A stretch of DNA of 58,197 nucleotides, taken from positions 1-58,197 of the forward strand of contig JBAYIQ010000005.1 of NCBI GenBank assembly GCA_041665545.1, written 5' to 3'. Positions 22,597-47,808 of this stretch are shown piece after piece (position 1 is the first letter of the stretch; each line of letters opens with the position of its first letter). Under the pieces are notes generated by a model. That model was not told the DNA's origin. It saw only the letters and a program-made list of their open reading frames with translations, and did not search any database. The stretch comes from Patescibacteria group bacterium. GTDB lineage: Bacteria; Patescibacteriota; Patescibacteriia; UBA1558; GWA2-36-10. The position numbers and the translations under genes are program-made.

Positions 22597-22627
22597 AACC
22601 TTCGAGGTTGCCATAACCTCGAAGGTT
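22597..22627. promoter_or_regulatory. Perfect 13-bp inverted repeat AACCTTCGAGGTT-N5-AACCTCGAAGGTT between divergent island genes
   Basis: Seen directly. It lies ~55 nt upstream of a TTGACA-N16-TAGTAT promoter-like sequence at 22684..22711. Confidence 0.45.
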
Positions 22628-23460: not shown

Positions 23461-23503
23461 TCCCTGCTCCAACACACCACCGTCTTCCCAAAGGAGTATC
23501 AAG

Positions 23504-25228: not shown

Positions 25229-25320
25229 TAGAACTGACTGTCTCTGACGGTCTGAACTCTGAGCCAAAGCTTTCATAGAGGGGAGGCGGTGCTACACAGC
25301 ACCGCCTCCCACTCCAAAAC

Positions 25321-25359
25321 AAGAGGGATCTTTCGTAACCCCTCTTTTTTTATTTTTTA
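25321..25359 (+). terminator. Rho-independent terminator after the flotillin gene
   Basis: Stem aagaggg/ccctctt followed by tttttatttttt. A separate 13-bp-stem hairpin at 25281..25310 has no T-run. Confidence 0.6.
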
Positions 25360-25405
25360 ACCAAAATAAAAAGGGTACTCCCTAATTACACTGTCAACAC
25401 AAAAA

Positions 25406-25456
25406 GACCCTGCACCGGAGCCACGTAAGTGGCGACTGGTACAGGGTCGATTTTTT
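25406..25456. terminator. Bidirectional terminator (nested hairpin gaccctg...cagggtc) flanked by A- and T-runs
   Basis: Serves plus-strand island transcripts and minus-strand ORF 25463..26422. Confidence 0.55.
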
Positions 25457-25462
25457 ATACTT

Positions 25463-33300: not shown

Positions 33301-36300
33301 AGCGACCATCGTAGGCCCAAATAGCGGCTGCATCAAGTGAGGCATTGGCGGTTGAGGCCAAAATAGTAAAAGTATCACTGCTAGATGGAGCAACCGACAG
33401 AGCCGGAGTAATAGTCAATTTTTTGGTAGCGCCAACATAATTGCTAATGCGTCTAACCTGACCAGCATTGGATCCAGAGGTAAATACCAAAACACCGTCA
33501 TTATAAAAATCATCATTGGCATTGGTCAGGGTGGTAATAAATTCTGTGGTTGAGGGACTTGGGTCATCAACGGCTTTTTGGGCGACCAATAAATTATTTA
33601 TCAAATTGCTTAAACTATTGGCAACCGCTGTCACCTCAGCTGATGAAGCGCGAGAAGAAATAGTAGTATCAATATTGGTTTTTAATAAAGAGCCAATGCT
33701 ATTGATAGTCGTGATTGAGGTCAAAAGTGTATCCCAAACTCGTTGTGCCGTCAGATCGCCAGATGTTAGGGTGCGAGTTTCATAAGTCCAAATTTCAAGA
33801 GCTAAAGCGGCTAAACCATCATTCTCAATACTAGTAATTGTCCTGGTGCCCTCACTCCAAACATCTGATGCCGTCAAATTACTAGTGCCACGAGAAGAAA
33901 TAGTAGCATTCAAATTATCAACTATCAGTTTGCCAATAGAACCACCCGTAGAAAGCAAAGCTGATGCTATATTCCAGACTTGAGCTGGATCAGATAAGGT
34001 GACTCCACCACTCAAACTGCGGCCACCAGCTGACCAGACATCAGCCGCTGAAATATTATTTAAGGCCTGTATGTCAGCCAAAGTAGCCAAGGAGCCACTA
34101 TTCAAAGTAGCGTCAGTCAAACGACGAACATTGTACTCCCATATTTCTTGGGCAGTCGCCCCGCCACCGCCAGTAGCGCTAGAATAATAACTTAAAATAA
34201 TAAATTCATCATTGAAAGCTGGCGCATAAGGCATGGCCGCATCCACCGTAATTGCTTTGGTGGCGCCATTGTAGCTAGAAATTCTACGGGCAATACCAGC
34301 ATTCTGGCCACTCATCATAACCACCATTTGATTTTGATAAAAATTAGAAGTGGCTTGTGTCATGTCTGTCACAAAGACAGTGGCTGAAGCGGCCACATCA
34401 TTGACCAAGCCCCGCTTGATGGCCAAGCGATCATTTAAAAGTTGCCCAAAAGATCCATCAATATCAGCAAATGACCCCACTTGTGCTCCCCAAATACTAG
34501 TAGCCGTCAAGCCAGTTGACAACCACGGCACCACTGGTTGACCAGAAGAATGAAAATCCAAAGTACCAGTATCTACTGTACCCGATAAAACAGCCATATC
34601 ATCTATGTACACCGATGGCTGTCTAAAAATAATATAATCACCCATCGTGGCATTGGTCAGAGTGGTACTTAAAAGATGTGGCACTACTCCACTACCCTTC
34701 AAATACAATAACTGGGCAGTATTTTTTACAATATCAAATATCTTACCATTAGCGTCTTTAAATTTATAGCCGACCCATTGATTGGTGGTCCAACTTTTAT
34801 CAACATCCTCAACAATGATTGGCAAATAATTACCCAAGGAATCATCGATAATTTCACTGGTGCCAGAATCAGCGGCCACAAAAGCTGACTGCACGGAAAA
34901 TTTTATATCGGCAATAGCTGACTCTGTAGGCGTACCAGACACCACAAACTGTTGCCAATCATTAGCCGTGTCTTGTGCTGTCCAAGTAAGGTTGGCACCA
35001 GTCATACCCAGACCAGATAAGGTAACTGTCGGTAAATTAGTAGACCCATAATAACTATTGATATTCATATAGCCCGTAATGGCTAGTGGCTGGTTAGCCA
35101 CACCAATGACTTTGGCTGTATATTCAAGTGGCGCATCAGGATTCAGCGAATCCAGACGCCACGCATAACCACTAGCTGTGTGAGCAGTGGAATCATTGAG
35201 ACCTAACCCGGAAGTTCGCATATTACCAAAAGTGGTAAAATTAACTATGTCTTTAGTCGAGCTAGAATAATTGCCGCGAATATCAGCTCCGGGGATAGTC
35301 AGACCATAAAAATGTTCTGGTATCCTAGACATATTATTATAATCGGCCATGCCAAACAAAACCGGACTTAATAATTGAGTATTAGAGCCGGTAAATTGCA
35401 TCAATGATTCTGCTTCAAAAGTAGTGGTATTAGCTGGTATACTAATATCTGCCTCATTCCAAGAACCACGACCAAAAATACTACCACTATCCATAATACC
35501 CACATTGGCCGTGGTTTGGGCCACGCTGATTCCTGCGCCATATCCAGCTTGATTTAAGGTGACAGTATCCGAGACCGAGCCATCAAAAACATTATCAGAC
35601 ATCGTGAGGAAAGAATTACCATTGAGCCGTATACCAAAATTATTTACTGAAAAAATATTGTTAGCGATAGTCATTTTGGCTACGCCACTATTTAAATTAA
35701 CTGCTCCGCTAGTAATACCCGTCACACCATTATTATAAAACTGGCTATTAGCAATAGTGTACAAACGTCCAGACACAAAAGAAGCCGCACCATTAGCCGA
35801 GGTCAAAGCCGCATTAGTGTTGCGACATCCCATAAATATACTGCCATCAATGCCAACGTTTTGTGAAGCTGTAGCATTATAACCAGTGCCTAAAGTAGTG
35901 GCGCCAAAGTTGGTGGTCACAAAATATGCTCCCACAGTATTAGTGCCTTGAGTTTTGGCTGATACCGTATAAGCACGATCATAATAATTATAAAATACTG
36001 ACTTACTGACTGTCTGTGTTGGTTTGACCAATGTGGAAGTATAAGGATTGTTCATTATAGAAAAATTACTATACTGATTCTCAGTAGAAAGATGACTAAC
36101 GTTCAGATTCGCTAAACCTGACAAACCCACAGCTACTGTACCAAAAGCATTGCCCATGTGTATGGGCGTGGCCACTGTGGCACCGGTAGCATTTATTTCC
36201 TCATCCGACCACATGTGTATACTACGCTTGAGATTCAACACTGGCGAATTGTAAGGAGCTGAAGTAGAGTCCCGCTTGGCCTTGTGATGGAAAGTAAAAT

Positions 36301-39300
36301 TATTTGACCAGCCAGCCAAAGTGGCCGCTGTACCATTTTCTAGAAAACCAGAACCAAACTTTATCCTAGCTGATGGTGTGTATTTTTCTCCAGTATTATC
36401 CACCCATATTCTTGTGCGATCCGGATAGGTCACAACTCTTATTCTATCATTGCCCGTATCAGCACCGTTGGTAAAAATCATGGCTGGATTGCCATAGGCA
36501 TAGTCTGCCCAAACAAAACCCTCTTGAGGATTCATGGCCGCGTCAAAACTAGCGCGAAAAATATTAATACCAGTACTAGTCGCGTAGCCAGTACCGACAG
36601 TCTCACCTCCCACCCAAGCGCTGGTTGGTGGTGTAAAGTTACCCCAGTCAGTGGCCGAAGTACTGATAGAATTATCAAAAATCGCAAACTCATCCAAAGC
36701 GCCATCAAAAGGCGCAGCAAAATCATAACGATTACCGAGCTTAATCAAACCAGCGTTTATACCTCTAGTACCGACAGCCGACCCCTGACCAATGGTAAAG
36801 GCCGTGCCATTCAACCAAGCTCTTTTGGCGTTAGCTGTTTCATCCCAAGCCAAACGAAAATGATACCAAGTACCAGCGGTAGCTGAAAATGCTTGCCTTA
36901 ACAAGGTACCTTGAGCAGCGGCGGCATACAGGCCAACTTCCAAGAAACCTTCTGGGGTAGAACTGGAAGTATTTATGTGCCTGATAAATAAACGATCAGT
37001 ATCTATCTGAGCAACATTGGCTTGATCAAGCAAATACATACCATAAGGATGCGTGCTAGTAGCTGGATAACCGTTATAAGAGGGCTTGAACCAAAAATCA
37101 ATTGTGCCATTTTGTCTGGTGGTAATTGTGCCACTTTGGGCCTCAATATTATACCTAGTTGGCACCGCGCTACCAGTCAAAGTAAATGCTGGAGCTATCA
37201 TCACCGCGCTACCTATGCCATTCTGACCAGTCCAAGAACCAGTATTGCGTCGCATGTTATCCTGCAAGAGCAATTGACGCGCGCCAAATTTTGGTCCAGT
37301 CGGTGTGCCAGAATTTATACGCAAAGAGATTTCACTATTTGGCGATGTATAGGTACTACCTGCCGTAGCCGTACCAGCAGCACCAGTAGCACTACCAGTG
37401 ACATCATATTTACCACTAGTAGGGTTCCATTCGAAATCCCAAACTTCATATTTGGTATTGACACCAGTAGTAATTGGCACGCTACTATCAAGACCAAAAC
37501 TATTTCTAATAGCCGTAGAACCAATATATATCTTATCCCCTATTTCCGGATTTACTACGCCATTCCAACCACCTTTGTGTTTGATAATAAAATTAAGATA
37601 ACTGCTAGTAAAAGGAACACTCGGATAAGCCGTGCCTATCAGACCAGCACTTTCTCCGGTCACTCGCCAAGAACCAGTATTATTAAAATTATCAGAAAAA
37701 CCAAGGTCCGTGCTTAAATTATCAAATTTTACTTTATTACCCACACCAGCCGAACCAGCACCAGCATAAACACCAAAGCGACCACCTGCGTAGGTGGCAT
37801 TCGTCTGAGAAGTATCCCACGACCCTTCGGTCGGATCAGTATCACAATCTGTGGTAGCCCAAAACTTAGCATTGAGAGTGGTGCCTACGGCCTGCGCTTT
37901 GAGACAATACCAAGCAGAAGTGGCAAAGGCCTTGGAAAAAGCTGAGCCAATTACTGTCGGCACACCTGCCAAGGTAGTATATAAACCAATGGTATTGACT
38001 GCGTTAGTTTTGTTAATCAAAGCGGCATAGCCATTACCATCAATACTTTGCCTAAAAGTAAGACCTAATTTCCTATTACTACCGTCTTCCACATTATCCA
38101 TATACACCAATGCTTTGATGGTATAATCGCCATCACTCAAACTTCCATAGCTATTATGCAAAGCTATGTTGGCTTGATTTGTTTCATTGATATTTAATGT
38201 CCCGTCACTGATGTGCCAAATATAAGGAGCCGACGGCAAAACATTTACTGTACTGGCCATTCTTTGCACCTCTACCCAACCTGGGGAATTACCATATTCC
38301 AACATATACTGCTCATTGGGATTATAGGTGGCTCCTGGTGTCACAGCGCCAATCTTGGCTTCTTGCACGCCAGAAGACACGGTGATGGCTCCAGAGGAAA
38401 GTCTCTCAATACCACTCATGCCCATAGGAGTGGTCTGGTTGGTCGGAGAGGTGGTCCAAGAACTGACTGAATCAACTTTTAATCTAACCCAATAAGCATT
38501 AACTCCATTAACAGTTGTCTTGGCCGGAGTGCCAGTCAAATCATTTGGTGTCCAGGATAAAATACGACGATTGTTAGTAGCGCCATTTTCCGTCAAAAAA
38601 TTACTAGGATTAAAAGACTTCCATTGCCCGCCATTCAATCGGCTGATTGTTGCTGTTTGATCCGTGGTATAGCCCAAGGGCACCGGCTCGGTAAAGGTAA
38701 TAACGCCAGCGGCGATTACGCTAATGCGTCGATAAATAGGATCAGAATTATTATCGTCAATCATCACTACTTGATCAACACCAAAGTTAGCTTGATTGCC
38801 AGAGGTCACTGACACAGTATAAGAATTTATAGTTGTATTGGCTGACAATGGCACGGAATGTCCGGTACGCATTTGGTATTTATAAGCATCGCGGGGTGTA
38901 AAAGATGTCCAGCCAGCGCCATTATAAAATTGCCATGACAAGGAAGCGCTAGCATCCATGGCTACACCCATATTCAACTCCAAAGAATAAATCATGTTAC
39001 TACCTTGATCGCCAAAATATATAGCATCATCAGCCTCTACTGTTGGATTGGCCCCATCCACAAACATGGTCCAAGCTGATGTAGTAGCATAGTTTCCAGA
39101 AAAACCACTTGTACCATTATTATTATAAATATCAGTCAGGGGTATGGTGCCAATTTCTGCCACTTCCATATTTGGTGTGGGCAAAGAATTACGTCCACCA
39201 GCGGTAGCTAGTCCTGTCCAAACTGGAAACTGATTACCATCATCATTGGCTCCCATCCGTAAAGATGAAAAATTGTTATCAACTGCTTGGTTGGTAGCGC

Positions 39301-42300
39301 CAGCGACAGCTATGTTATCCAGTGGCTGCCAATTACCCACTACATTATCCTTGACATCTACCCAAGTATTGCCAGCATCAGCGGAATTGTTACCCAAGAA
39401 ACCCGTGTCAATATTACCATCAATATCTACAGCTAAGTCGCTTTTCATGGTCCGAAAAGCGTCTGAGCCAGCAACATAAAGATTTGTACGCCCGGCGCGA
39501 GCATTTTGTTGAGTAGCCGTAATAGCGCCAGTCATAGTATAAATACCCGCTCGCCTATCAGCTCCAGTAGGTAATTCGGTAGCTGGTCCCTTGGCCACAA
39601 AAGCACTTTGCCCCGTAGTATAGCCCACAACCAAGTTGGCTGTGACCGTAAGCGTTGTCGCATTTTCAACAGCCGCTACTATTCTAGTTGTGGGTAAAGA
39701 ATCATTATCGTCAATTATAATAGTATCACCGGGGTTAAAACCAGTAGTAGAAATTACTGTCAAAGTAGCGCTAACGGCTGTGTCAGCATTTAAATTTGTA
39801 TTGACTGCTGGACTAACATTATCCCAATATATATCTACCAGAGACGAAGCGGGAATAGCCGCTCCACTTTGACCAAAGGCCACTGAAGCATCGGAATCTA
39901 CTAATATTTTGCCAGGGATAGTCAGGCGATAATGCTTGTTAGCACTGGTATCAACATTTAGCTTGGAACCGGGGCAAACAACCGCTGATATCCAACCGCC
40001 ATTTTGTGAATAAGCCGAGTAGTTGGTACGCGTGCCTGCACCATCATTGATGGCATCACCTGACTTACCGGTGTAAGCCATAGCCGCGTCCCAATCACGA
40101 TCTATTGTTACCACGTGCTCTTGTTTGCTAGACCAGTTAAGATCATTTGTTAAAGCCGAGGCATCACCCGTATCTGGATCAGCTTTTCCATTACCAACTA
40201 TTATAAGATCACCATCAGCTGGGGCTGCGGTATTACCCGTACCGTAGGCCACAAAGAAAATGTGTCTATTGCTTAAAAAAGGATAACGAACAAGCGAAGT
40301 TGCCAAAGCTTCCATTTTAGCATAAAACAACAACACGGATGTGGTGCGCGCTAAAAGAGTTGTAGTGCCTGCTGGATTTTGAGTATGATTAAATGTGGTC
40401 CATTTCATTACCGCACCATCAGCCGGAGTACTAACGGACATGTTAGCTGAAATTTCAGCTATCTGAGCATTATCTGCTGTGTTATAACCAGTGACAAAAG
40501 CTGCGTCCAAAATAAGTGATGGCCCACCGCCACAATTAACATCTGTGCCATTTACTGTCGAAATAAAGCGAGTAACAACGACATTGGAATTATTATCCCA
40601 AATCGCGACACTGGGCGAAGTACCAACAGCCGCGGTAAATCCAGCAATACTAGCCACGCAGACTCTAGTAGTGGCTGTAGAATTTGCTGTCAATGTGGTT
40701 ATGGCTCCCTGGACTATTCTTTGTTTCCACGTAGCTTGCGCTATACTAGCATTTTTATCAGTAGTAAAACCAATCACTGTGGCGGCTGTGGTGATAATAG
40801 AAGCACCGCCCGAACAATTAGAATCAACCTCATTTACTGAAGCTACGGTTAAGGAAACAGTGGTTGTATTGGAATCCCACAAGTTTATTGTTTGATTAGC
40901 AGCAAAACCAGTTATTGAAGCCACACACAACCTAGTTGTCGCCGTAGAATTAGCAGTCAGGGTAGTAAATGGTACTCCATCGTTGACCCAGGAAGCTGCT
41001 GTACCACCAGTGGCTGGGGTAGTTAATTTTCTACTTTGGGTACCGGAAACAGAACCAGCCAATGTCCAATTTGAGCTGGCCGAAGAATAAGTGGCAGTCC
41101 AGTGTTGATTTTCGGTACGCCTTACTGTCGGCATACCAGTACCAGCTGCTGAGTTGCCAGCTACCATAGCGGTAAGCAAACCAGCAGCGCTAGAATTACC
41201 GGTCAAAACCAAAGGCATATTCACGGTTGGAGCGCTGGCGCCAGCAATATCAGTAACACCAATGGTTCTCAATGTGCCATCAACTGTAGGAAAATTACCA
41301 TAAGGAGCATTAGCGGCCCAAGTACCAAAAACAGGAGCGCCAGCGCCAAAGTTGCTAATACGAATACCGTAATGTTTGGTGGTCAATACACCCACTGCTG
41401 GATCAAAACGAAAATCAATCATAGCATGCCCAAAATTTCCTGGCGTCAAGTTTTCACCAGACAAGGCCTGATTGAACTGCCAAATAGTTTTGCGCAACAC
41501 TATTGTATCGTCTGGGTAGTTGTAAGCACCCTGAGTGCCGGTAACATATCCCGTGCAAGAGGTAGTGCAACTAGCTGTCGGAAACTCCAAAAGCTCAACC
41601 AAAATATCCGGATTTGATAAAGAAGTAGCCGTCGGATTTTCCATGGATAACATAATGCCAGACAAATCAGCGCTGGCATTGGGTTTGAAACCAATAAACT
41701 GTGAGGTGGCCAAAGTAGCATTGGCTGCCAAGGCCAAATACCCAATTGCCTGTCCACCAGCACTACCATCAGTCGTGCCACCAGGATTGATTGGGTTAAA
41801 ATTGCCAGACTCAGCATCACCGTTGACGCCGTCGCCAGAATAAGCCAAAGCCGTCAGCCAATTTGAACCACTTAAAGTGGTAGTTTGCCCAGAAACTTTT
41901 ACCAAGCCAGTGAAAGTAGCAGCATAAGCTGGTGTCCGATCTCTAAAAAGCCACTCAAAAAGTGGAGTTAAAGAAGCCACACCTAGTGTGGAAATAACCA
42001 AAAAGAAAATCATCCAGCCAGCCATCGCTCGCCTCAACAACAATTGATTTGGCTCCCTGAGTAATTTCTTAAAATCACCAAAACCAATGACCGGTGACAT
42101 GGCCTCCTGAACTTCGCGTCCTTTGGGTAATATCTTTTTTTCGTATGTTTGAGGAATATATTTAATAAATGGCTTAGCTAGCCACAACATAAACAATTTA
42201 AATTCTTTAACCCTAAAGTTAAATTTAATCTTCAGTGACTTGGGACTGGCAAATAAACTAACCGCTTTAGCCCCAAAAAATCCTAAAAATTTGACATAAA

Positions 42301-42745
42301 AAACAATTGTCGCGTACCAGACAATTTTTAATAAATAAAAAATAATTAAATATAGCGCTTTAAAAATATAAAATACCGCTTGAGCCAAGGCATTGGCTAT
42401 AAAACGCATACCTTTTTCTAAAGCTGGGGCTTTTTCTTTGATAAAATAATAAAAACGACTCAAATATTTCCAAGAAAAACGGAAAAAATTTTTCAAAAAT
42501 GGCCCTAAGTCCTCGACAATAAACTCTTTAACCATTGGAGCCAACCATTTTATAAAACGCCAACAATTTTTGAATATAAAAACCAAAACTACTGACAATA
42601 GATAGCCAACTAGCACTAATATTGAACCGACTATCTTAGCTAACCAGACCAATGAATAAAGTATAAATTCTAGAATTTTAATAATTGTTTTTCTGTGGCG
42701 GATAGATGGTTTTAGTCGCCACGAGGGAAGTAGATGTCTATTCAT
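30314..42745 (-). CDS. Giant membrane-anchored surface protein (4143 aa)
   Basis: Uninterrupted 12.4-kb ORF. N-terminal cluster of TM helices, then a Thr/Ser/Gly/Asn-rich ectodomain with parallel beta-helix-like repeats and a LamG/ConA-like segment (DFWFKPS...WYHFRLAWDE...FDGALDEFAIFD). Five ~133-aa tandem repeats follow, then a coiled-coil, two TM helices and a C-terminal SH3b-like domain (GWLNVR...GWYQI...GWV). Confidence 0.8.
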   Translation of the reverse strand: MNRHLLPSWRLKPSIRHRKTIIKILEFILYSLVWLAKIVGSILVLVGYLLSVVLVFIFKNCWRFIKWLAPMVKEFIVEDLGPFLKNFFRFSWKYLSRFYYFIKEKAPALEKGMRFIANALAQAVFYIFKALYLIIFYLLKIVWYATIVFYVKFLGFFGAKAVSLFASPKSLKIKFNFRVKEFKLFMLWLAKPFIKYIPQTYEKKILPKGREVQEAMSPVIGFGDFKKLLREPNQLLLRRAMAGWMIFFLVISTLGVASLTPLFEWLFRDRTPAYAATFTGLVKVSGQTTTLSGSNWLTALAYSGDGVNGDAESGNFNPINPGGTTDGSAGGQAIGYLALAANATLATSQFIGFKPNASADLSGIMLSMENPTATSLSNPDILVELLEFPTASCTTSCTGYVTGTQGAYNYPDDTIVLRKTIWQFNQALSGENLTPGNFGHAMIDFRFDPAVGVLTTKHYGIRISNFGAGAPVFGTWAANAPYGNFPTVDGTLRTIGVTDIAGASAPTVNMPLVLTGNSSAAGLLTAMVAGNSAAGTGMPTVRRTENQHWTATYSSASSNWTLAGSVSGTQSRKLTTPATGGTAASWVNDGVPFTTLTANSTATTRLCVASITGFAANQTINLWDSNTTTVSLTVASVNEVDSNCSGGASIITTAATVIGFTTDKNASIAQATWKQRIVQGAITTLTANSTATTRVCVASIAGFTAAVGTSPSVAIWDNNSNVVVTRFISTVNGTDVNCGGGPSLILDAAFVTGYNTADNAQIAEISANMSVSTPADGAVMKWTTFNHTQNPAGTTTLLARTTSVLLFYAKMEALATSLVRYPFLSNRHIFFVAYGTGNTAAPADGDLIIVGNGKADPDTGDASALTNDLNWSSKQEHVVTIDRDWDAAMAYTGKSGDAINDGAGTRTNYSAYSQNGGWISAVVCPGSKLNVDTSANKHYRLTIPGKILVDSDASVAFGQSGAAIPASSLVDIYWDNVSPAVNTNLNADTAVSATLTVISTTGFNPGDTIIIDDNDSLPTTRIVAAVENATTLTVTANLVVGYTTGQSAFVAKGPATELPTGADRRAGIYTMTGAITATQQNARAGRTNLYVAGSDAFRTMKSDLAVDIDGNIDTGFLGNNSADAGNTWVDVKDNVVGNWQPLDNIAVAGATNQAVDNNFSSLRMGANDDGNQFPVWTGLATAGGRNSLPTPNMEVAEIGTIPLTDIYNNNGTSGFSGNYATTSAWTMFVDGANPTVEADDAIYFGDQGSNMIYSLELNMGVAMDASASLSWQFYNGAGWTSFTPRDAYKYQMRTGHSVPLSANTTINSYTVSVTSGNQANFGVDQVVMIDDNNSDPIYRRISVIAAGVITFTEPVPLGYTTDQTATISRLNGGQWKSFNPSNFLTENGATNNRRILSWTPNDLTGTPAKTTVNGVNAYWVRLKVDSVSSWTTSPTNQTTPMGMSGIERLSSGAITVSSGVQEAKIGAVTPGATYNPNEQYMLEYGNSPGWVEVQRMASTVNVLPSAPYIWHISDGTLNINETNQANIALHNSYGSLSDGDYTIKALVYMDNVEDGSNRKLGLTFRQSIDGNGYAALINKTNAVNTIGLYTTLAGVPTVIGSAFSKAFATSAWYCLKAQAVGTTLNAKFWATTDCDTDPTEGSWDTSQTNATYAGGRFGVYAGAGSAGVGNKVKFDNLSTDLGFSDNFNNTGSWRVTGESAGLIGTAYPSVPFTSSYLNFIIKHKGGWNGVVNPEIGDKIYIGSTAIRNSFGLDSSVPITTGVNTKYEVWDFEWNPTSGKYDVTGSATGAAGTATAGSTYTSPNSEISLRINSGTPTGPKFGARQLLLQDNMRRNTGSWTGQNGIGSAVMIAPAFTLTGSAVPTRYNIEAQSGTITTRQNGTIDFWFKPSYNGYPATSTHPYGMYLLDQANVAQIDTDRLFIRHINTSSSTPEGFLEVGLYAAAAQGTLLRQAFSATAGTWYHFRLAWDETANAKRAWLNGTAFTIGQGSAVGTRGINAGLIKLGNRYDFAAPFDGALDEFAIFDNSISTSATDWGNFTPPTSAWVGGETVGTGYATSTGINIFRASFDAAMNPQEGFVWADYAYGNPAMIFTNGADTGNDRIRVVTYPDRTRIWVDNTGEKYTPSARIKFGSGFLENGTAATLAGWSNNFTFHHKAKRDSTSAPYNSPVLNLKRSIHMWSDEEINATGATVATPIHMGNAFGTVAVGLSGLANLNVSHLSTENQYSNFSIMNNPYTSTLVKPTQTVSKSVFYNYYDRAYTVSAKTQGTNTVGAYFVTTNFGATTLGTGYNATASQNVGIDGSIFMGCRNTNAALTSANGAASFVSGRLYTIANSQFYNNGVTGITSGAVNLNSGVAKMTIANNIFSVNNFGIRLNGNSFLTMSDNVFDGSVSDTVTLNQAGYGAGISVAQTTANVGIMDSGSIFGRGSWNEADISIPANTTTFEAESLMQFTGSNTQLLSPVLFGMADYNNMSRIPEHFYGLTIPGADIRGNYSSSTKDIVNFTTFGNMRTSGLGLNDSTAHTASGYAWRLDSLNPDAPLEYTAKVIGVANQPLAITGYMNINSYYGSTNLPTVTLSGLGMTGANLTWTAQDTANDWQQFVVSGTPTESAIADIKFSVQSAFVAADSGTSEIIDDSLGNYLPIIVEDVDKSWTTNQWVGYKFKDANGKIFDIVKNTAQLLYLKGSGVVPHLLSTTLTNATMGDYIIFRQPSVYIDDMAVLSGTVDTGTLDFHSSGQPVVPWLSTGLTATSIWGAQVGSFADIDGSFGQLLNDRLAIKRGLVNDVAASATVFVTDMTQATSNFYQNQMVVMMSGQNAGIARRISSYNGATKAITVDAAMPYAPAFNDEFIILSYYSSATGGGGATAQEIWEYNVRRLTDATLNSGSLATLADIQALNNISAADVWSAGGRSLSGGVTLSDPAQVWNIASALLSTGGSIGKLIVDNLNATISSRGTSNLTASDVWSEGTRTITSIENDGLAALALEIWTYETRTLTSGDLTAQRVWDTLLTSITTINSIGSLLKTNIDTTISSRASSAEVTAVANSLSNLINNLLVAQKAVDDPSPSTTEFITTLTNANDDFYNDGVLVFTSGSNAGQVRRISNYVGATKKLTITPALSVAPSSSDTFTILASTANASLDAAAIWAYDGRYLSGAALDSGSLATLSNIQSTESTLSGQLNTLINNLIVEQKVVNDAGASDNQFITTLTSNSNDFYNNGVLVFTSGVNAGQARRITDYVGASKQVTVSPALSLAPVNADTFTILAQTANSAVDAAAIWTYGDRYLSGATLDSGSLATLSDIQDTETVLASAISVNSTKLDKIINALIVSETSVNDLAPSTTVFATALTNATNDFYKNNILLFTSGLNIGQARRIMGYNGTTKAITVDPALALAPANADTFTILAQTSNTATLDAASIWAYSGRYLSGADLDSGSLATLSDLQSTETTLGNSIDAVSNSVDLLSNDLIAIRSAVSTAEVSPTISLFGTNLTSAVNDLYAHALLTFTSGQNSGVARRIDDYNGTTKAITVEPDLPFAPASSDAFTILKTLAVPVTKISTIQSDVAGIKDDVTLIKADIALIKTQLDNIEASIATLETSIDNIEVGSGSSTTNNTNVYNVKPEEMFTAMGTISNSIQNINTKLGRLDSDTLSSILSISQENMTDIKYVRNKLADYKAVTTVQRQVVQQATAPIVSTWYTSGSVDLNIMLSNPAKTAQKVPFKIYLPKEAKVEHIMDDGGFNIQYDVQLDTLYAAGEIELAPGASVKKFIKMRDIWQIAENDLTIAKTQANDFYKKLEKNQLSSQALLLKNDIDSKVEKILRTQKENTASPQDKIMTYRENKESFISVQTELDELKSLLSQADASRGFLGALGGIQTISVWGIIIAFVTGFGLLVTILFSMWKHQVAIANGQMALQSHILTGKPLDMEKMNSSGGRRKKKKAAVSKNSPANIASVEAKAKVSTSFLIYIKQFFTRLFKNIRQNKVWLITFVLIFIVLYLLVDKYGILANIRQNLSKYIKTDELRSANNVTVASETDVNKLDNIPVLADNNMAFSFGSESASSTSSSTVPATEDILMKKQVIIKDTPTGWLNVRQEASKETAVVAKVSAGEKYDLLSQVAAQGLEKFGWYQIALTENKVGWVFAEYAEELK
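32200..33650. repeat. Intragenic tandem repeats (~400-bp period, about 4 copies) inside the giant gene
   Basis: Near-identical DNA blocks (...gagtctaaag...cctgataaata...cccaaatag...) recur at about 32450, 32870 and 33255. Corresponds to the FTSGxNxGxxRRIxxYxGxTK...DTFTILA...LDSGSLATLS protein repeats. Confidence 0.7.
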
Positions 42746-42894: not shown

Positions 42895-44175
42895 TCATGT
42901 TTTTTCTTTGATTCTCCTCTTTATTTTTCTTAATGTTATAAAAACAAAAAACCCAAACCACAAAACAAACAAAATCGCTGATAAATAGAGGGTTAAACCA
43001 TTAAATTTAGCTTGCGATTTTAACCTTTCAACTAAAGCTTGGAAATAATTATTTTTTTCTACCACAAAGTTTAAATTCATCCGCACTTCACTGGCCTCAC
43101 TTTTTGTTAATTGATCAATGGCGGTCACAGCCACAATCTGCCCCTTATAATAGCCAGCTTTCATGTCTAGGGGCATAGTAAACGCTAAATCAATATTTTT
43201 GGCCTTGCCCATTTCTAGGCTGACATTTTTTACATCAATTTTTAAAACATCTTTTTGATCATCGCTAAAATAAGCCGCTAGCTCCACATCTAAATCACGC
43301 TGACCAATGTTAACCAATAATAAATTTTTTATATCCCATATCTCACCCGGCTTGACTGTATGATCAAGATTATAGTCATTTGGTGAAAACATCAACTCTC
43401 CGCTAGCCCACGCCGAAAATGGCAGACCTAGAAAAAACAAGAGAGCAAAAAATTTAAGCAATCGACTGGTGCTATTTTTTTTACCTAGATAATGTTGCCT
43501 CTTTTTTTCTAACAATCTTTCAATCGCATACCTCAACATAGTGCGAGGCATTGTTTTATAATTTTTATCCAAAAAATTAAGCAAAATCTGCTCATCACAG
43601 CGCTTGCCAACTTCTCTCAGCATCCAACCAACGGCTTTCTGGATCAAATCGTGCTTATCGTGTAGCAAAATATTGGCTATTTTTATAGTTTCTTTAGATT
43701 GACAGTAATAAATAAATTGAAAAGTTGCTAAAATAGCTATACGCCTTTGCCAAAGATTTTTGCTTTTGGCTAATTTGTACAAAATATTTTTTGGTTTATC
43801 AGCCAAATAAGCGCCCACTATACGTGGAGCTGTCAAATCTACTAAATCCCAATTATTTATATATTTATAATTTTTTAAATACAAACCAAAAATTTGCTTC
43901 TGTTTTTTGCTATCCCCCTTTTTATATTGTTCAACCAAAATTAATAAAGCGCAAAGGCGTTCTTCATGGATTTTAGAATGCAACAACTCGCTGACTTGCT
44001 TAAGCGGTAAATCAGAGTATTGTTTAGAGACTTTTCTAATGTCGGGCACCACTACGCCAATGAATTTGTCACCCTCGCTGTATTGTCCTTTACCAGTTTT
44101 AAAAAATCTCTGCAAAATTTTGGCTTTGCTCGACTTAGATAATTTTTTTAGGTCTTTTTTAACATTGGCTACCAT
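42895..44175 (-). CDS. AlkD-like DNA alkylation repair (HEAT-repeat glycosylase) domain fused in frame to a C-terminal signal-peptide-bearing TM domain
   Basis: The N-terminal ~235 aa match the DNA-alkylation-repair family. An internal signal-peptide-like LLKFFALLFFLGLPFSAWASG and a terminal TM helix follow. This may be two genes, with a TTG start for the second. Confidence 0.55.
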   Translation of the reverse strand: MVANVKKDLKKLSKSSKAKILQRFFKTGKGQYSEGDKFIGVVVPDIRKVSKQYSDLPLKQVSELLHSKIHEERLCALLILVEQYKKGDSKKQKQIFGLYLKNYKYINNWDLVDLTAPRIVGAYLADKPKNILYKLAKSKNLWQRRIAILATFQFIYYCQSKETIKIANILLHDKHDLIQKAVGWMLREVGKRCDEQILLNFLDKNYKTMPRTMLRYAIERLLEKKRQHYLGKKNSTSRLLKFFALLFFLGLPFSAWASGELMFSPNDYNLDHTVKPGEIWDIKNLLLVNIGQRDLDVELAAYFSDDQKDVLKIDVKNVSLEMGKAKNIDLAFTMPLDMKAGYYKGQIVAVTAIDQLTKSEASEVRMNLNFVVEKNNYFQALVERLKSQAKFNGLTLYLSAILFVLWFGFFVFITLRKIKRRIKEKT

Positions 44176-44216
44176 AAACTAATTTTAACTTAAATTCTAA
44201 ATAAACAAAAGCGACC

Positions 44217-44247
44217 CGCCTCGCCCTGCAGATGCAGTGGCGAGCTG
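44217..44247 (-). terminator. GC-rich imperfect hairpin downstream of the TlpA-CcdA gene
   Basis: ctcgccctgca...tgcagtggcgag. Confidence 0.3.
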
Positions 44248-44267: not shown

Positions 44268-45548
44268 TTAACTACCAAAATTCATTAATACTTCTGGTTT
44301 AAATATCATGAGCAAGCCAATGACCAACATCAAAATGCCACCAATCAATCGCGAAGCTCTGGTGTATTTGGTGGTCAAACCAGTAGCTTGTAAAGTAAAC
44401 ATAGCAATAAAGAAAACAACCAAATCATCCAGCATAAAAAAGAATATGTAGAGTAAAATATAGCCATAATAATGCCAGCCAGTCATATTATTCATGGCTA
44501 GCATCTGAGTATAAACTGCTGGAAAGCCAGCTGAGCATAATAACTCGATCAAATTGACCATAAAAGCCAAGGCCATGATACCAAACAAAGCTAACCAAAA
44601 ATTTTGATGTGAAACGTAACCCTTTAGCTTATCCATGGTTTTCTTTTTTTTCTGAACATCACCAACTTCACAGGATGCGTCTTTGTTTTTGTAAAAATCT
44701 TTGAGACTATAGCCAGCGCCCATTAAGGCAACTAGACCAATCAATATTTTTACCCAAGCTACTACTCCGATAAATAAAAAGATGTTAAGCCAAGCCACCA
44801 TAAATAGAAAATAAACCGCGGCTGAAGCTACTATAAAAGATGAGCCCAATATCCACATCCTTTTCCTGTTTTGCATACCGATCAGCAAGCTGATCAAAAA
44901 AACCAAAGTCCACATAGCGCAGGGATTGAAGCCGTCCAAAGCACCAATGATAATTGTCAAAACTGGCAAAGAAAACTTAGCCATATCAATCTTACCAAAT
45001 ATACCAGCGTCTATTTTTCCAACTGCTTTTGATTTATCTTGCTGGCTGGGATCATCTTTTTTATCAATACTTGCTTCCTCGATTATTTTTAGAGCTGGCA
45101 CTATAGAAGCCACAGAATCCGGACAAATGCCCCCCACACATTCTTTGATTCTGGCTTCTATCTTAGGAGCAGTATAGCTTTCATCAAAACCAGTGAAATA
45201 TTGATCACCAATAATAGTAAAGGGCACGCCGCCAACATTAGCTTGGAGTTTTTTAGCTACTTCAATCATCAAACTAGCATTGCTTTGATGATTCCAGACC
45301 TCAAACCTCTGTATTCTTAAGTCCGGATATTTGGACTCAATGCTTTTCAAAAATACTTCTTCTTTGGCGCAATGCGGACAGCCATCGCCCCAAAATAAGT
45401 ACAAATTTGTTTTAGCTGAGCTGGAACCAGTTATTTCTATACCTTGGTTGTTTGTTTGATTATTCTCAGAGTTGCTAAACTTAACAATCACAAAAAGAAA
45501 TACAACAACTAATAACGCTCCCAAATAAAGATACTTATATTTGCCCAT
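44268..45548 (-). CDS. Thioredoxin-like (CPHC) domain fused to a CcdA/DsbD-type transmembrane thiol-disulfide transporter
   Basis: N-terminal anchor, WGDGCPHCAKEE thioredoxin motif, then a polytopic region with FNPCAMW and a second Cys (CSAGFP). Confidence 0.7.
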   Translation of the reverse strand: MGKYKYLYLGALLVVVFLFVIVKFSNSENNQTNNQGIEITGSSSAKTNLYLFWGDGCPHCAKEEVFLKSIESKYPDLRIQRFEVWNHQSNASLMIEVAKKLQANVGGVPFTIIGDQYFTGFDESYTAPKIEARIKECVGGICPDSVASIVPALKIIEEASIDKKDDPSQQDKSKAVGKIDAGIFGKIDMAKFSLPVLTIIIGALDGFNPCAMWTLVFLISLLIGMQNRKRMWILGSSFIVASAAVYFLFMVAWLNIFLFIGVVAWVKILIGLVALMGAGYSLKDFYKNKDASCEVGDVQKKKKTMDKLKGYVSHQNFWLALFGIMALAFMVNLIELLCSAGFPAVYTQMLAMNNMTGWHYYGYILLYIFFFMLDDLVVFFIAMFTLQATGLTTKYTRASRLIGGILMLVIGLLMIFKPEVLMNFGS

Positions 45549-45605
45549 ATATATTAATTTATTTTATTAAGCTTTTTTATAAAAAATTAAAACTACTAAT
45601 ATTTT

Positions 45606-46079
45606 TTAATCATCTTCTTCCTCATCATCATTGCCAACCACATTAGTATTTTGATTTGTGTTAGCTGGTGGTATGGCCACCGCATCTGTAGAAACAGTTG
45701 ATCCGATTATACCGATCTTGTAACTAGCCAAAATATTGCTAGCATTAGCCGAATGACCCTGAGTAGCAAAGGCAGCGGCAATATCGCCTCCGCAATATTT
45801 AATAATGTTTGATTGCCCACCGGGATGTGATTTTATATATGATGTCACATTATAGACATTATTGCCAGCTGTCACCCAGCAGTCAGAAGCCATATTGTGT
45901 TGGGTTACTATAGCAGTAGTTAGAGTATATGTCACTGGCGCGATATTGGCAGGATTGTTGGTTAATAAATTTCCTAGGTTGGTTAAACTTCCATTATTTT
46001 GTCTTACTAAACTATTAACAAAAAAAATGCTGACTGCTCCCCAAAAGATAAATACCGCTATAATTATTATTTTATTCAT
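45606..46079 (-). CDS. Secreted cytochrome b5-like heme-binding domain protein with acidic C-terminal tail
   Basis: DCWVTAGNNVYNVTSYIKSHPGG...GGDIAAAF (HPGG motif). Signal peptide. C-terminus DDEEEDD. Confidence 0.6.
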   Translation of the reverse strand: MNKIIIIAVFIFWGAVSIFFVNSLVRQNNGSLTNLGNLLTNNPANIAPVTYTLTTAIVTQHNMASDCWVTAGNNVYNVTSYIKSHPGGQSNIIKYCGGDIAAAFATQGHSANASNILASYKIGIIGSTVSTDAVAIPPANTNQNTNVVGNDDEEEDD

Positions 46080-46186
46080 CCGGTTAGAAATTTAAATAAT
46101 TAAACTTTTTATAACTAAAGTAAAATTTTGCTAAATAATTTTTATACATATTTCTAAATATTATCCCGTGAATTTCTAACGGGATG
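46077..46186. repeat. E3: ~110-bp inverted-repeat element (catccggttagaaattt ... aatttctaacgggatg); left arm overlaps the ATG of the cytochrome-b5-like gene
   Basis: Homologous to E2 beyond the inverted repeats. Confidence 0.65.
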
Positions 46187-46196
46187 AATATATTTA

Positions 46197-47513
46197 TTAT
46201 AACATTTTAAAAGCCTCGGGATTTATATTTTTTTTCGGAATACCTGTTCTTAGCAAAGCACTGGTCAAAGCCGACATCATGCCTACTGGCCCACAAATAT
46301 AAAAATGGCAAGCCCTAATATCAGCAACAAATTTTCCTAACTTTTCTAAATCAAAGCGCCCTTCTTTATCGGATATATAAATATTCAATTTAAATTGCGG
46401 ATAAGTTGTTTGGGCCTGCTGAAAAATATCAAGTGCCACCAAATCTTTTTCCGAAGTCACTATATAAAATAAATCCACAACACCGGCGCCAGTTTTTTTG
46501 ACACCCAAGGACTGAGCCAAACTCACAAAAGGAGTGATGCCAATGCCTCCTGCCAGCCAAATTTGATGATAATTGAGATCTAAGTTGTCGCCAAAACTAC
46601 CATAAGGTCCATCAAGCACGGCCACACTACCAACCTTGAGTTTTGCCAGCTTGGCCGTATAAGCACCAAGATTCTTGGCCATGATAGTCAAGCTGTGATC
46701 TGGATAAATTTGAGCCACTGAAAAAGGATGTTCCTCTCCTTTTTTTATATCAGGAAAGCTGACAAAAATAAATTGCCCTGGCTTGACGTCAATTATTTTT
46801 TTATCTGGCTGAAACGTGATGCTGACTATACTAGTACCTAGTTGTTCAACTTTACTCACTACAAAACGTCTAGATTTTATAGCATAACCAACCAAAAATA
46901 ATCTAACTAAATAGAGCAAAACACTAATTGATATTAACAAAATATAATAAATGGCTAACAACGGAATGCTTTTTATATCGCTGTCTATTAGTAGTGCGTG
47001 AACACCGCCAATCATCAATGGTACGGCCAAAATACTATGCAAAGATTTTAATTTTTCATATTGCAGGCGCCAAAAAAAAGTCATCAACACTAAAGCCATA
47101 AATACGAGAAGAGAAATATAGCCAAAAAGATAAGCGGTTTGAGACCAATTAGTAAAAATACCAAAAGCCGCTTGATTAGAAACTGACAAACGGCTGGCTG
47201 CCAAAAATAAAGGATGCAAAATTATAAAAGTAAAGGAAATTGTACCGAGCCAACGATGAATATTGATGACTTTTGGCAAACCATAAAAAAGCTTGTCCAG
47301 CCAGACAAAACGAGCAGACATCAGAAGCGCTAAAGAAAAAATCGATAAGCCCAACAGCCCAGATAATTTACCTAAAGTGGAAAACAAAACTGGCCAAGGA
47401 TAAAACGATCGGCTAAAAGGTACGTCTGTATACAAAATAAAAAGCGGTACTATCACAATTAGTGCCAGAATTAACAAGCTTATGTATGATTTTATGGTTT
47501 TTTGATTAACCAT
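46197..47513 (-). CDS. NOX/ferric-reductase-like flavocytochrome (ferric reductase TM domain + FAD/NAD-binding domain)
   Basis: Paired His in TM helices (HRWLG...ILHPLF; HSILAVPLMIGGVHALL). HPFS FAD motif. GGIGITPF NAD(P)H motif. Confidence 0.7.
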   Translation of the reverse strand: MVNQKTIKSYISLLILALIVIVPLFILYTDVPFSRSFYPWPVLFSTLGKLSGLLGLSIFSLALLMSARFVWLDKLFYGLPKVINIHRWLGTISFTFIILHPLFLAASRLSVSNQAAFGIFTNWSQTAYLFGYISLLVFMALVLMTFFWRLQYEKLKSLHSILAVPLMIGGVHALLIDSDIKSIPLLAIYYILLISISVLLYLVRLFLVGYAIKSRRFVVSKVEQLGTSIVSITFQPDKKIIDVKPGQFIFVSFPDIKKGEEHPFSVAQIYPDHSLTIMAKNLGAYTAKLAKLKVGSVAVLDGPYGSFGDNLDLNYHQIWLAGGIGITPFVSLAQSLGVKKTGAGVVDLFYIVTSEKDLVALDIFQQAQTTYPQFKLNIYISDKEGRFDLEKLGKFVADIRACHFYICGPVGMMSALTSALLRTGIPKKNINPEAFKML

Positions 47514-47628
47514 TTATAGATTATATTATTTGTTTATTATAATTAATTATGCGCTTCTGGTCAAACAAAAAACAACCCGACGGGTTGAAAGTATGACATG
47601 TCTCTCGACTCGCTACGCTCGCTCAAGA

Positions 47629-47720
47629 CACTCGATTCATGATACGAAAATGGTCGTAGGTGCTGAAAAGCACCGGAGACCACGAGTGAGTTTTTTGCTA
47701 AGCAAAAAACGAATCGAGTG
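47629..47720 (-). repeat. R3: third copy of the tRNA-3'-flanking inverted-repeat element (after tRNA-Ser)
   Basis: The reverse complement aligns with R1 and R2 and starts on the CA of the tRNA-Ser CCA. Confidence 0.65.
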
Positions 47721-47808
47721 GCGGAGAGGACAGGATTTGAACCTGCGAGGGATTTTACTCCCTACTCGCTTTCCAAGCGAGCGCACTAGACCACTATGCG
47801 ACCTCTCC
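47719..47808 (-). tRNA. tRNA-Ser (GGA), class II, CCA encoded
   Basis: Acceptor ggagagg/cctctcc, G73, anticodon loop uuGGAaa, long variable arm. Confidence 0.85.

Follow-up and report, generated by a model that had tools for sequence, protein, structure and literature searches.

The locus considered in the present work lies within a window of 58,197 nucleotides (the whole stretch of DNA that was analysed, belonging to a Patescibacteria MAG) and consists of three adjacent genes on the minus strand, hereafter C, B, and A in their 5' to 3' order, each found as an open reading frame where the initial annotation had placed it. The features of the locus are reported in Table 1.

Table 1. Features of the C-B-A locus (positions in the window)
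Feature	Position	Strand	Remarks
Weak terminator-like hairpins	44208..44233	-	directly past the stop of gene A; consensus matches only
Gene A	44268..45548	-	ORF of 426 aa
Gene B	45606..46079	-	ORF of 157 aa
E3 inverted-repeat element	46077..46186	.	fills the C-B spacer; arms 46171-46186 and 46077-46092
Gene C	46197..47513	-	ORF of 438 aa
Promoter-like site TTGACC-17-TATAAT	47536..47564	-	11/12 matches; consensus scan only
Terminator-like hairpin	47573..47587	-	between tRNA-Ser and the promoter-like site; consensus scan
tRNA-Ser	47719-47808		upstream of the terminator-like hairpin

The promoter-like site, from which a C-B(-A) transcript may start, lies 22 nt upstream of the gene C start codon. 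The hairpin on the tRNA-Ser side marks the upstream boundary of this unit, and those following gene A are a possible downstream boundary; the consensus scan did not retrieve any terminator-like site in the C-B and B-A intervals. C and B are separated by 117 nt. No gene for Msr, peroxiredoxin, or SOD was found within 10 kb of the cluster, and the cluster did not match any plasmid in a megablast search.

The product of gene C is composed of a di-heme domain with six transmembrane (TM) segments and a dehydrogenase domain binding FAD and NAD(P)H. It matched the Pfam models Ferric_reduct (PF01794; 44.9 bits versus a cut-off of 28), FAD_binding_8 (43.6 bits versus 22), and NAD_binding_1 (40 bits versus 22), and it aligned end-to-end with the solved NOX of Streptococcus pneumoniae (SpNOX, 8qt6; E 2.4e-23; residues 52-436 against 35-397), with a low identity of about 25-30%. 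The conservation of single residues was evaluated on 15 homologues, whose identity goes down to 29%. In this set, the heme histidines H86/H100 (13 residues between) and H159/H172 (12 residues between), located on TM3 and TM5, are invariant, a spacing that agrees with bis-heme ligation; the two pairs align with the SpNOX regions holding H69/H83 and H129/H142 (residue numbers from PMC11564096). Also invariant are H262-P-F of the FAD motif, the NAD(P)H motif G322-G-I-G-x-T-P-F, C407-x-P409, F435, and Leu104, which lies four residues past the outer-heme ligand, while S265 and G408 are conserved at a level of at least 90%. Overall, C and SpNOX (8qq7, 8qt6) share the same three-domain architecture, length, heme histidines, FAD/NAD(P)H motifs, and C-terminal aromatic residue. 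Like SpNOX, C is devoid of large extracellular loops, and its outer heme is thus presumably exposed. Judging from its sequence, C is an SpNOX-type prokaryotic NOX/ferric-reductase-like flavocytochrome, which would be loaded with heme and FAD. The Pfam matches and the full-length alignment with 8qt6 agree with the initial annotation, in which C was a NOX-like fusion of a ferric-reductase TM domain with FAD and NAD(P)H modules; the motifs that it had listed fall at H262-S265 (HPFS) and G322-F329 (GGIGITPF).

The product of gene B matched the Cyt-b5 model (PF00173; E 1.2e-18; 67.3 bits versus a cut-off of 23.7) and is made up of an N-terminal hydrophobic anchor (residues ~4-24), a linker of roughly 30 residues, the b5 domain (56-124), and, at the C-terminus, a poly-acidic tail. 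The PDB entries that it matches best are classical b5 proteins, and both axial histidines are aligned; H85 and H109 correspond to the heme ligands in 2ibj, 1awp, and 1cxy, the last being the periplasmic cytochrome b558 of Ectothiorhodospira (E 1.7e-9). The two histidines are invariant among 16 NOX-linked b5 proteins, and so is the cysteine pair C67/C96. Moreover, all the CPR/DPANN b5 partners examined (19 out of 19) have a hydrophobic segment at the N-terminus; acidic C-terminal tails recur among both bacterial and archaeal partners, many others lacking the tail. On this evidence, B appears to be a classical bis-His cytochrome b5, membrane-anchored and outward-facing according to the predicted topology. 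Its description as an extracytoplasmic cytochrome b5-like protein, previously based on the HPGG motif (here starting at H85), is therefore borne out, and the outward-facing b5 adjoins a NOX gene.

The start of the b5 gene is embedded in the E3 element, as had been noticed before: the b5 ATG (46079-46077) represents the last three bases, i.e., the outer end, of the arm 46077-46092, which is a copy of the 16-mer AATTTCTAACGGGATG. Six copies of this 16-mer, forming three inverted pairs, occur in the window, against an expectation of 0.6. On the mRNA strand, E3 is predicted to form a 19-bp stem pairing the b5 AUG (dG -26.8 kcal/mol, z -3.9); such a hairpin would mask the start codon, and b5 expression at this locus is, in turn, uncertain. 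E3 is missing from the NOX-b5 spacer of the relative L001, and identical 2-bp flanks were found in 64 of the 98 pairs of the E element family. E3 is a MITE-like inverted-repeat element that rebuilds start codons. No Rfam family matched the E3 spacer, a literature search for the E-arm sequence returned nothing relevant, and no -10-like box was found at a fixed distance inside the element. The idea that the E arms represent a leader peptide or an in-frame extension ('MNPVRN...ISNGM') was discarded, the spacer lengths showing no frame preference and the ends of the mini-ORFs being scattered; as to a plain RNA hairpin, compensatory changes are few and selection-biased. An element of this type, able to rebuild start codons, may be of value independently of the redox genes.

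The organization of the C-B gene pair was compared across 80 loci harboring a NOX related to C. According to tblastn, 19 of them have a b5 gene directly following the NOX gene on the same strand, and a profile search raises this number to ~26 (overall, about 21-26 out of 80). In most of the paired loci, the b5 start falls between -3 and +19 nt from the NOX stop, often overlapping it, and b5 would often be translationally coupled to the NOX gene; in the window, this usual tight junction is broken by the 110-nt E3. The pairs are found in CPR bacteria, DPANN archaea, and a few Proteobacteria; the archaeal ones belong to Pacearchaeota (L003 and L004) and Woesearchaeota (L039), and a further pair is carried by a Porticoccaceae contig (L071, GC 59%). 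NOX-b5 pairs also occur on independent contigs for P0151 and P0157. The b5 gene occurs as a single or a tandem copy, and this variable number fits an electron-relay accessory. On the other side, the close NOX relative P0133 (59% identity) has no adjoining b5 gene, most of the 80 loci do not harbor one next to NOX, and in other lineages the NOX neighbours are cytochrome b561, DUF2271, or PepSY; these data suggest that b5 is not obligatory for the enzyme. No NOX-b5 fusion protein (Rosetta stone) was detected in 27 b5 homologue matches. The conserved module is limited to C and B, and the only link between the two is the adjacency of their genes; this conserved, often overlapping order backs the earlier proposal of B as a candidate extracytoplasmic heme acceptor for the NOX-like fusion.

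The NOX-b5 cluster itself is not new. The colocalisation of pFre and cytochrome b5 genes in CPR was described in a 2021 preprint for 185 of 1,427 pFre-containing genomes, its function being given as unknown (bioRxiv 10.1101/2021.11.17.468889); the arrangement is not without precedent. The window carries a CPR pFre-b5 cluster of this kind: on a Patescibacteria contig, genes of PF00173 and PF01794 lie within 10 kb of each other. The same preprint reported no colocalisation outside CPR (bioRxiv 10.1101/2021.11.17.468889), whereas the pairs retrieved here are also harbored by DPANN archaea and a few proteobacterial contigs. The ancestral operon proposed there includes a MAPR-like cytb5MY and a two-component system (bioRxiv 10.1101/2021.11.17.468889). 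Four of our loci (L032, L037, L047, and L060) reproduce this larger arrangement, the MAPR-like b5 and the two-component system both being present; in the window, neither was found within 10 kb on either side of the cluster, which represents a minimal form with one classical bis-His b5.

Gene A codes for a protein with an N-terminal anchor, an extracytoplasmic thioredoxin/glutaredoxin/DsbA-like domain bearing a CPHC motif, and a six-TM domain. In the motif (C57-C60), P58 is conserved at a level of at least 90%, and the other three residues (C57, H59, and C60) are invariant. The AF2 model of this domain has a pLDDT of about 90, Foldseek matches it to thioredoxins (prob 1.0), and the profile matches are to DsbA (2e-4) and Grx (5e-4). 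In the membrane half, C210 (NPC210, TM1) and C338 (C338-SAG-x-P, TM4) are invariant among homologues and lie at helix breaks in the AF2 model, an extra cytoplasmic cysteine (Cys293) is invariant as well, and the K/R-rich loops, as read from the sequence, fit an N-out topology. The best structural match of this half is CcdA, the model being of medium confidence. As for sequence profiles, neither A nor about 21-22 of its homologues matched DsbD/DsbD_2 (PF02683, PF13386) at E up to 5; the membrane half did not retrieve any match from Pfam (E up to 10), NCBIfam, or the PDB (phmmer/hmmsearch); and the hhalign comparison of the A family with E. coli DsbD aligned the CxxC alone. An internal 3+3 repeat was searched for and not found, and Foldseek with the full-length model returned thioredoxins only. 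Of the two parts initially read in A, the CPHC thioredoxin fold stands, whereas the CcdA/DsbD-type transporter is tentatively matched at the level of the fold and not at that of sequence profiles.

A resembles CcdA, DsbD, and ScsB in having six TM segments, one cysteine each in the broken TM1 and TM4, and K/R-rich cytoplasmic loops, and its fused outward-facing CxxC thioredoxin fold recalls the thioredoxin-like partners of these proteins. It differs from them in the absence of profile-level sequence similarity, in carrying NPCAMW and C-S-A-G-x-P instead of P-C-x-x-P, in the additional Cys293 and the DsbA-like CPHC, and in a context devoid of c-type cytochrome maturation. According to the structural model, A is probably a CcdA-like thiol-reductant transporter, and it belongs to a very large, CPR-wide family of thioredoxin plus CcdA-like proteins that no Pfam model covers.

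This family counts more than 7,900 proteins in CPR, against about 1,200 NOX homologues detected. A adjoins NOX-b5 only in close relatives, i.e., L001 and same-species contigs; the NOX-b5 loci of the more distant relatives examined lack it, and elsewhere it is embedded in unrelated contexts, e.g., ArsR-Trx_3-A-ArsP_1. A is an unrelated neighbour, outside the conserved NOX-b5 module, and the initial view of the three genes as one redox cluster is not upheld. We consider it fairly probable that the locus harbors two independent envelope redox devices side by side, namely the C-B electron chain and the A thiol relay, with A placed downstream of C-B by chance in this lineage. A would work as a CcdA-like membrane thiol/disulfide relay keeping the fused outward CPHC domain redox-active, a direction of the thiol chemistry that we infer.

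As for the C-B chain, the domain identities, the cofactor-ligand residues, the predicted topology, and the conserved C-B order were computed here; beyond these, we infer a transfer of electrons from C to B and then to a terminal acceptor, which would proceed as follows. C would oxidise cytoplasmic NAD(P)H by hydride transfer to its FAD, and single electrons would cross the membrane via the inner heme (H86/H159) and then the outer heme (H100/H172). At the outer heme, which is exposed to the solvent, the electrons would be accepted directly by B, held on the outer face by its anchor and flexible linker. The reduced b5 may then pass them to an acceptor outside the cell, for example O2, a chelate of Fe(III) or of another metal, or a constituent of the surface or of the host. 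Overall, an organism devoid of a respiratory chain would export reducing equivalents at the expense of NAD(P)H. The potentials of NOX hemes are about -225 to -265 mV and that of b5 is near 0 mV, so that electron transfer to b5 would be downhill. CPR bacteria are generally regarded as unable to make heme, which counts against a chain with three hemes. The cryo-EM analysis of SpNOX revealed a highly exposed outer heme and a direct, efficient reduction of cytochrome c (PMC11564096), and it has been proposed that the enzyme may have a protein acceptor, O2 being perhaps not the physiological one (PMC11564096; PMC11031084); SpNOX itself, however, reduces O2 in vitro, which speaks against b5 as the acceptor. 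That C and B represent a minimal self-contained transmembrane electron-export chain, in which b5 is the physiological protein acceptor of a prokaryotic NOX and NAD(P)+ is regenerated, is a possibility that we advance tentatively.

A different reading is that C is an NAD(P)H oxidase that produces superoxide and whose true acceptor is O2, B being not its acceptor but an unrelated co-transcribed heme protein, a regulator, or a scavenger of the ROS formed. This appears doubtful: the tight, often overlapping C-B junctions are kept across bacteria and archaea, and the invariant Leu104 of C occupies the position of a histidine which we take to line the O2 site in eukaryotic NOX. Moreover, the authors of the SpNOX work doubt that O2 is the physiological acceptor (PMC11564096), even though the enzyme oxidises NADPH with O2 and yields superoxide (PMC5676040; PMC11564096) and many NOX homologues, one of them 59% identical, have no b5 neighbour.

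It is rather unlikely that the C-B pair is an assimilatory metal (ferric) reductase, in which b5, its poly-acidic tail binding cations, would reduce extracellular Fe(III)/Cu(II) for uptake and not to dispose of reductant. C falls within the ferric-reductase domain superfamily, whose eukaryotic FRD-family members reduce metals (PMC3591440), and the acidic tails do recur in bacterial and archaeal partners; nevertheless, SpNOX is a very poor ferric reductase (kcat 0.05 per s; PMC11564096), iron-transport genes are absent within 10 kb of the cluster, and many b5 partners lack the tail.

A joint action of A, B, and C as one trans-envelope redox system, with A managing, for instance, the b5 cysteine pair or a common target, is in our opinion improbable. 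The invariant C67/C96 pair would depend on thiol chemistry outside the cytoplasm, the three genes are not divided by any terminator-like site, and the closest relatives (L001 and the same-species contigs) keep the C-B-A order; yet A is absent from all the other NOX-b5 loci examined, the size of its family and its unrelated contexts point the other way, and b-type hemes do not require CcdA-type maturation. Lastly, B might be a heme-capture protein taking host heme and loading C rather than an electron carrier, its surface exposure and the general heme auxotrophy of CPR being in favour. This is very improbable since, although MAPR members of the b5 superfamily are heme binders/chaperones (bioRxiv 10.1101/2021.11.17.468889), the ligation of B is of the classical bis-His type, unlike the Tyr ligation of MAPR-type binders, and a hexacoordinate b5 heme is not readily released.

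Returning to the electron-export chain, the C-B pair can be compared with two known systems. In MsrQ-MsrP, as would be the case for C-B, electrons pass outward from a di-heme membrane protein of the FRD type to a dedicated redox partner outside the cytoplasm, which docks at the exposed outer heme; unlike C, MsrQ is not fused to a dehydrogenase domain and receives its electrons from quinol or Fre, and its partner MsrP, a molybdoenzyme, acts on a defined substrate (Met-O). No such gene lies beside C, an MsrP-type molybdoenzyme being absent within 10 kb on either side of the cluster. Furthermore, as in NADH-cytochrome b5 reductase and its b5, an FNR-type FAD/NAD(P)H module would ultimately reduce a bis-His b5; the eukaryotic proteins (ER, mitochondria) are in direct contact on the same side of the membrane, whereas C and B would act on opposite sides, bridged by two hemes. 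As for SpNOX, a dedicated outward-facing b5 gene follows C, and three papers on SpNOX (PMC11564096, PMC5676040, PMC11031084) mention no b5 or other dedicated partner gene.

The role and the true electron acceptor of bacterial NOX homologues were left as an open question in the 2024 SpNOX structure papers (PMC11564096, PMC11031084), and a b5 encoded directly after NOX represents a concrete candidate for the "protein acceptor" missing there. This bears on the handling of reductant and oxygen in ultra-small, supposedly non-respiring symbionts. If the electron-export reading were true, non-respiring CPR and DPANN organisms would unload electrons onto O2, metals, or the host surface, regenerating NAD(P)+; this, in turn, would provide organisms supposed to be purely fermentative with a rudimentary route of respiration-like or extracellular electron transfer.

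The three consecutive ORFs of the minus strand, encoding a thioredoxin-fold membrane protein (gene A), a cytochrome b5 (gene B), and a NOX-like flavocytochrome (gene C), were recovered with exactly the coordinates given in the initial annotation, which had proposed them as one trans-envelope redox cluster. The genes located 5' of C encode GroEL, a PEP-utilising enzyme, a CCA/poly(A) polymerase, MscL, and tRNA-Ser, and those 3' of A encode a DNA_alkylation-domain protein followed by a giant protein; no gene for Msr, peroxiredoxin, or iron transport was found within 10 kb of the cluster. A consensus scan retrieved a strong promoter-like site (11/12 matches) that lies 22 nt 5' of C and just beyond a terminator-like hairpin, itself 3' of tRNA-Ser, as well as weak terminator-like sites 3' of A. 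Since this promoter-like site precedes C and no terminator-like site was found by the scan between C, B, and A, the co-transcription of the three genes is possible, as judged from consensus matches alone.

Table. Features of the window considered in this analysis.
Feature	Position	Strand	Remarks
Gene A	44268-45548	minus	ORF, 426 aa
Gene B	45606-46079	minus	ORF, 157 aa
Gene C	46197-47513	minus	ORF, 438 aa
DNA_alkylation-repair domain gene	42895-44175	minus	directly downstream of gene A
Giant ORF	30314-42745	minus	4,143 aa
E3 element	46077-46186		fills the C-B spacer
E copy	12085-12192		GC/GC flanks
E copy	21816-21925		GC/GC flanks
Post-tRNA conserved sequence	47628-47720	minus
Post-tRNA conserved sequence	13232-13324	plus
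Post-tRNA conserved sequence	12628-12699	plus
tRNA-Met gene	13998-14073
Group I catalytic intron	14473-14696	plus	Rfam RF00028, 81 bits, E 4e-19
High-GC block	about 22000-26000		GC 0.54-0.56
ORF in high-GC block	23504-25228		574 aa

As for the neighboring genes, the DNA_alkylation-repair gene is fused in-frame to a C-terminal half of ~200 aa with a signal-peptide-like segment at its start; a DNA_alkylation-repair gene is likewise found just downstream of the A-family gene in a distant relative (55% identity; locus L083, 7657-8376). The giant ORF probably encodes a surface protein; its product carries a membrane region at the N-terminus, long repeats rich in Thr, Ser, and Ala, and an SH3_3-like region at the C-terminus.

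According to its sequence, gene C encodes an SpNOX-type flavocytochrome. Ferric_reduct, FAD_binding_8, and NAD_binding_1 each exceed the curated Pfam cut-off, and the closest solved structure is that of Streptococcus pneumoniae NOX (aligned to C residues 52-436, E 2.4e-23). The alignment of 15 homologs (lowest identity 29%) revealed four invariant histidines, H86/H100 with 13 residues between them and H159/H172 with 12, in agreement with the proposed bis-heme ligation. Moreover, H262-P-F, G322-G-I-G-x-T-P-F, C407 and P409 of the CGP motif, and the C-terminal F435 are invariant, with S265 and G408 reaching 90% conservation or more. With these residues, C has the complete set of predicted cofactor-binding elements that characterizes the NOX/FRD family, and on that account the alternative that the protein belongs to a non-redox transporter family can be discarded.

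Gene B, in turn, encodes a true cytochrome b5. It matches the Pfam Cyt-b5 profile (E 1.2e-18), and the best-matching PDB entries are b5 proteins of the classical type, among them the periplasmic b558 of a bacterium (1cxy), in which both axial histidines line up with those of B; across 16 NOX-linked b5 proteins, neither H85 (HPGG) nor H109 (HS) varies. The possibility that the HPGG motif is fortuitous therefore does not hold. All 16 also have the cysteines C67 and C96, a pair absent from microsomal b5 that points to a disulfide bond in a protein located outside the cytoplasm. The N-terminus is basic and is followed by a hydrophobic segment, and the same anchor was found in all 19 CPR/DPANN partners inspected. 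The acidic tail of B also occurs in the clade of the window, in two Pacearchaeota, and at one other locus; several NOX-linked b5 proteins end in poly-acidic C-termini. The close relatives of B are mostly tandem b5-b5 proteins of ~265 aa (P0242-P0260; L001 11365-12207, L002, and L016), whereas B keeps the anchor and has a single b5 domain.

About 1,170 homologs of C were detected, many of them in CPR lineages and some in DPANN archaea. Eighty loci harboring them were fetched from one-genome-per-species contigs; in 19, probing with the B sequence (tblastn) placed a b5 gene directly 3' of the NOX gene and in the same orientation, and profile searches and Pfam checks raised the count to about 26, the additional cases including shorter HSGG variants and tandem-b5 proteins. 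In most paired loci, the distance from the NOX stop codon to the start of the b5 ORF is -3 to +19 nt, which implies that the two genes would be translationally coupled there. The pairs are distributed among many CPR groups, Pacearchaeota (L003 and L004), and Woesearchaeota (L039), and one was found in a Porticoccaceae contig with a GC content of 59% (L071; Pfam E 2.3e-20); weaker cases come from Comamonadaceae and Halopseudomonas MAGs. On independent metagenome contigs of relatives, the pair was found again for P0151 and P0157 and was not found for P0133. Where b5 is absent, the downstream slot can be occupied by a prokaryotic cytochrome b561 (Saprospiraceae, L017 11164-11694), a DUF2271 protein (Vulcaniibacterium, L049 6701-7171), or a PepSY_2 protein (Marinobacter, L067 11373-11774), suggesting that the flavocytochrome may have interchangeable envelope-protein partners. 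Overall, the NOX-b5 pair is a genuine and conserved arrangement that hints at a mechanism.

The position of gene A is different. For its N-terminal domain, a thioredoxin fold is predicted with confidence (pLDDT about 90; Foldseek); the domain has a DsbA-like CPHC active site and profile matches to DsbA and glutaredoxin. The membrane half had been described as CcdA/DsbD-type; it has no Pfam, NCBIfam, or PDB sequence match, neither DsbD nor DsbD_2 was found in any of the 22 family members scanned, and in the hhalign comparison of the family with Escherichia coli DsbD the CxxC alone aligns. The AF2 model of the transmembrane part (104 sequences, pLDDT 70, pTM 0.62) shows six helices, two of which are interrupted at an invariant cysteine, TM1 at C210 (DGFNPCAMW) and TM4 at C338 (ELxCSAGxP), and the K/R-rich loops fall on the predicted cytoplasmic side; the other invariant cysteines are C57, C60, C142, and C293. 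The model fits an N-out CcdA-like core carrying its own outward-facing thioredoxin domain. Given these helices, breaks, and loops, our best guess is that A probably works like CcdA/DsbD, any membership in that family being putative. The family (P0001-P0120) comprises Trx/Grx-like proteins with six transmembrane helices whose membrane domain is outside every Pfam model, and some members have a second Trx/Grx domain.

The A family, highly conserved in CPR with more than 7,900 matches at about 55% identity, is much larger than the set of detected NOX homologs, and its members occur elsewhere in other contexts (e.g., ArsR-Thioredoxin_3-A-ArsP_1 permease); A adjoins the pair only in the near relative L001 (67-79% identical proteins) and in contigs of the same species. 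For these reasons, the comparative data place A outside the NOX-b5 module, and the initial interpretation holds in part: the proposed three-gene system is better read as two functional units, of which the conserved pair is one.

The C-B spacer is 117 nt long in the window versus 53 nt in L001, and is filled by E3, one of three copies of an inverted-repeat element; one arm ends in the b5 ATG. Folded as mRNA, the two arms pair into a stem of 19 bp in which the b5 start codon is base-paired (dG -26.8 kcal/mol, z -3.9). The arms of the family are 14-15 bp long, ATCCCGTTAGAAAT(T) ... (A)ATTTCTAACGGGAT, with an AT-rich, variable interior of about 34-125 nt. The exact arm 16-mer is shared by at least 120 metagenome contigs (loci L088-L207). 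Of its 124 instances there, 88 have an inverted partner located upstream at a distance of no more than 140 nt (35-82 nt in most cases), and in 111 the ATG begins a long ORF, whose function varies; the latter association is partly selected for, since the retrieval pattern ends in ATG. The identity of the 2-bp flanks, unaffected by this bias, was observed in 64 of 98 pairs versus 23 expected (14-bp arms alone) and includes rare dinucleotides, pointing to the duplication of a 2-bp target site. Among the targets, ATGA|A predominates; on insertion, the terminal AT of the element and the duplicated G would rebuild an ATG, and the original one would stay upstream as a short "MNPVRN" ORF. The other two copies supply the start codons of ExoIII-like and DnaG-like genes; E3 itself has no matching 2-bp flanks. 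No Rfam family and, in a literature search, no match to the sequence were retrieved. We regard the family as putatively MITE-like, comparable in spirit to the Correia or Rickettsia palindromic elements.

Other features were observed in the window. Immediately beyond the CCA end, tRNA-Ser, tRNA-Met, and tRNA-Leu each have a conserved sequence of 85 nt (86-87% identical, with internal hairpins), reading CTCGATTCG..TTTTGCTnnGCAAAA..GGTGCTTATCGCACC..AATCGAGTG, for which no Rfam family reached the gathering threshold. A group I intron lies ~400 nt downstream of a tRNA-Met gene. The high-GC block (about 0.40 elsewhere), which holds a 574-aa ORF, may be foreign DNA; rRNA was ruled out by a window-wide Rfam scan.

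The colocalization of pFre, a ferric-reductase-like membrane protein (PF01794), with a cytochrome-b5-domain gene was already reported in 185 of the 1,427 CPR genomes with PF01794, with a CPR-specific function proposed, and was stated there not to be seen outside CPR (bioRxiv 10.1101/2021.11.17.468889). The NOX-b5 pair is thus already noted in the literature, and the window adds another example; the archaeal and proteobacterial cases modestly widen its range beyond CPR. Four loci (L032, L037, L047, and L060) match the larger operon of that preprint, in which a two-component system accompanies a MAPR-like b5, whereas the window harbors a minimal version with one classical b5. Furthermore, cytochrome b5 was listed among the orphan electron carriers of non-respiring CPR (PMC8080830).

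In the best-supported reading, electrons taken from NAD(P)H in the cytoplasm would enter FAD, move on via the inner and then the outer heme, and reach an external acceptor through the tethered b5. Up to cofactor ligation, conserved residues support this putative path, as does the homology of C to a protein with a solved structure and a characterized enzymatic activity; the transfer from C to B we infer from the conserved gene coupling, the topology, and the published properties of SpNOX, whose outer heme is very exposed and which directly and rapidly reduces cytochrome c (PMC11564096; PMC11031084). Candidate purposes are reductant disposal, O2 handling, or metal reduction. The authors of the SpNOX studies left room for a protein as electron acceptor and questioned whether O2 is the physiological one (PMC11564096; PMC11031084); the NOX-b5 pair provides a concrete candidate for the physiological acceptor of bacterial NOX.
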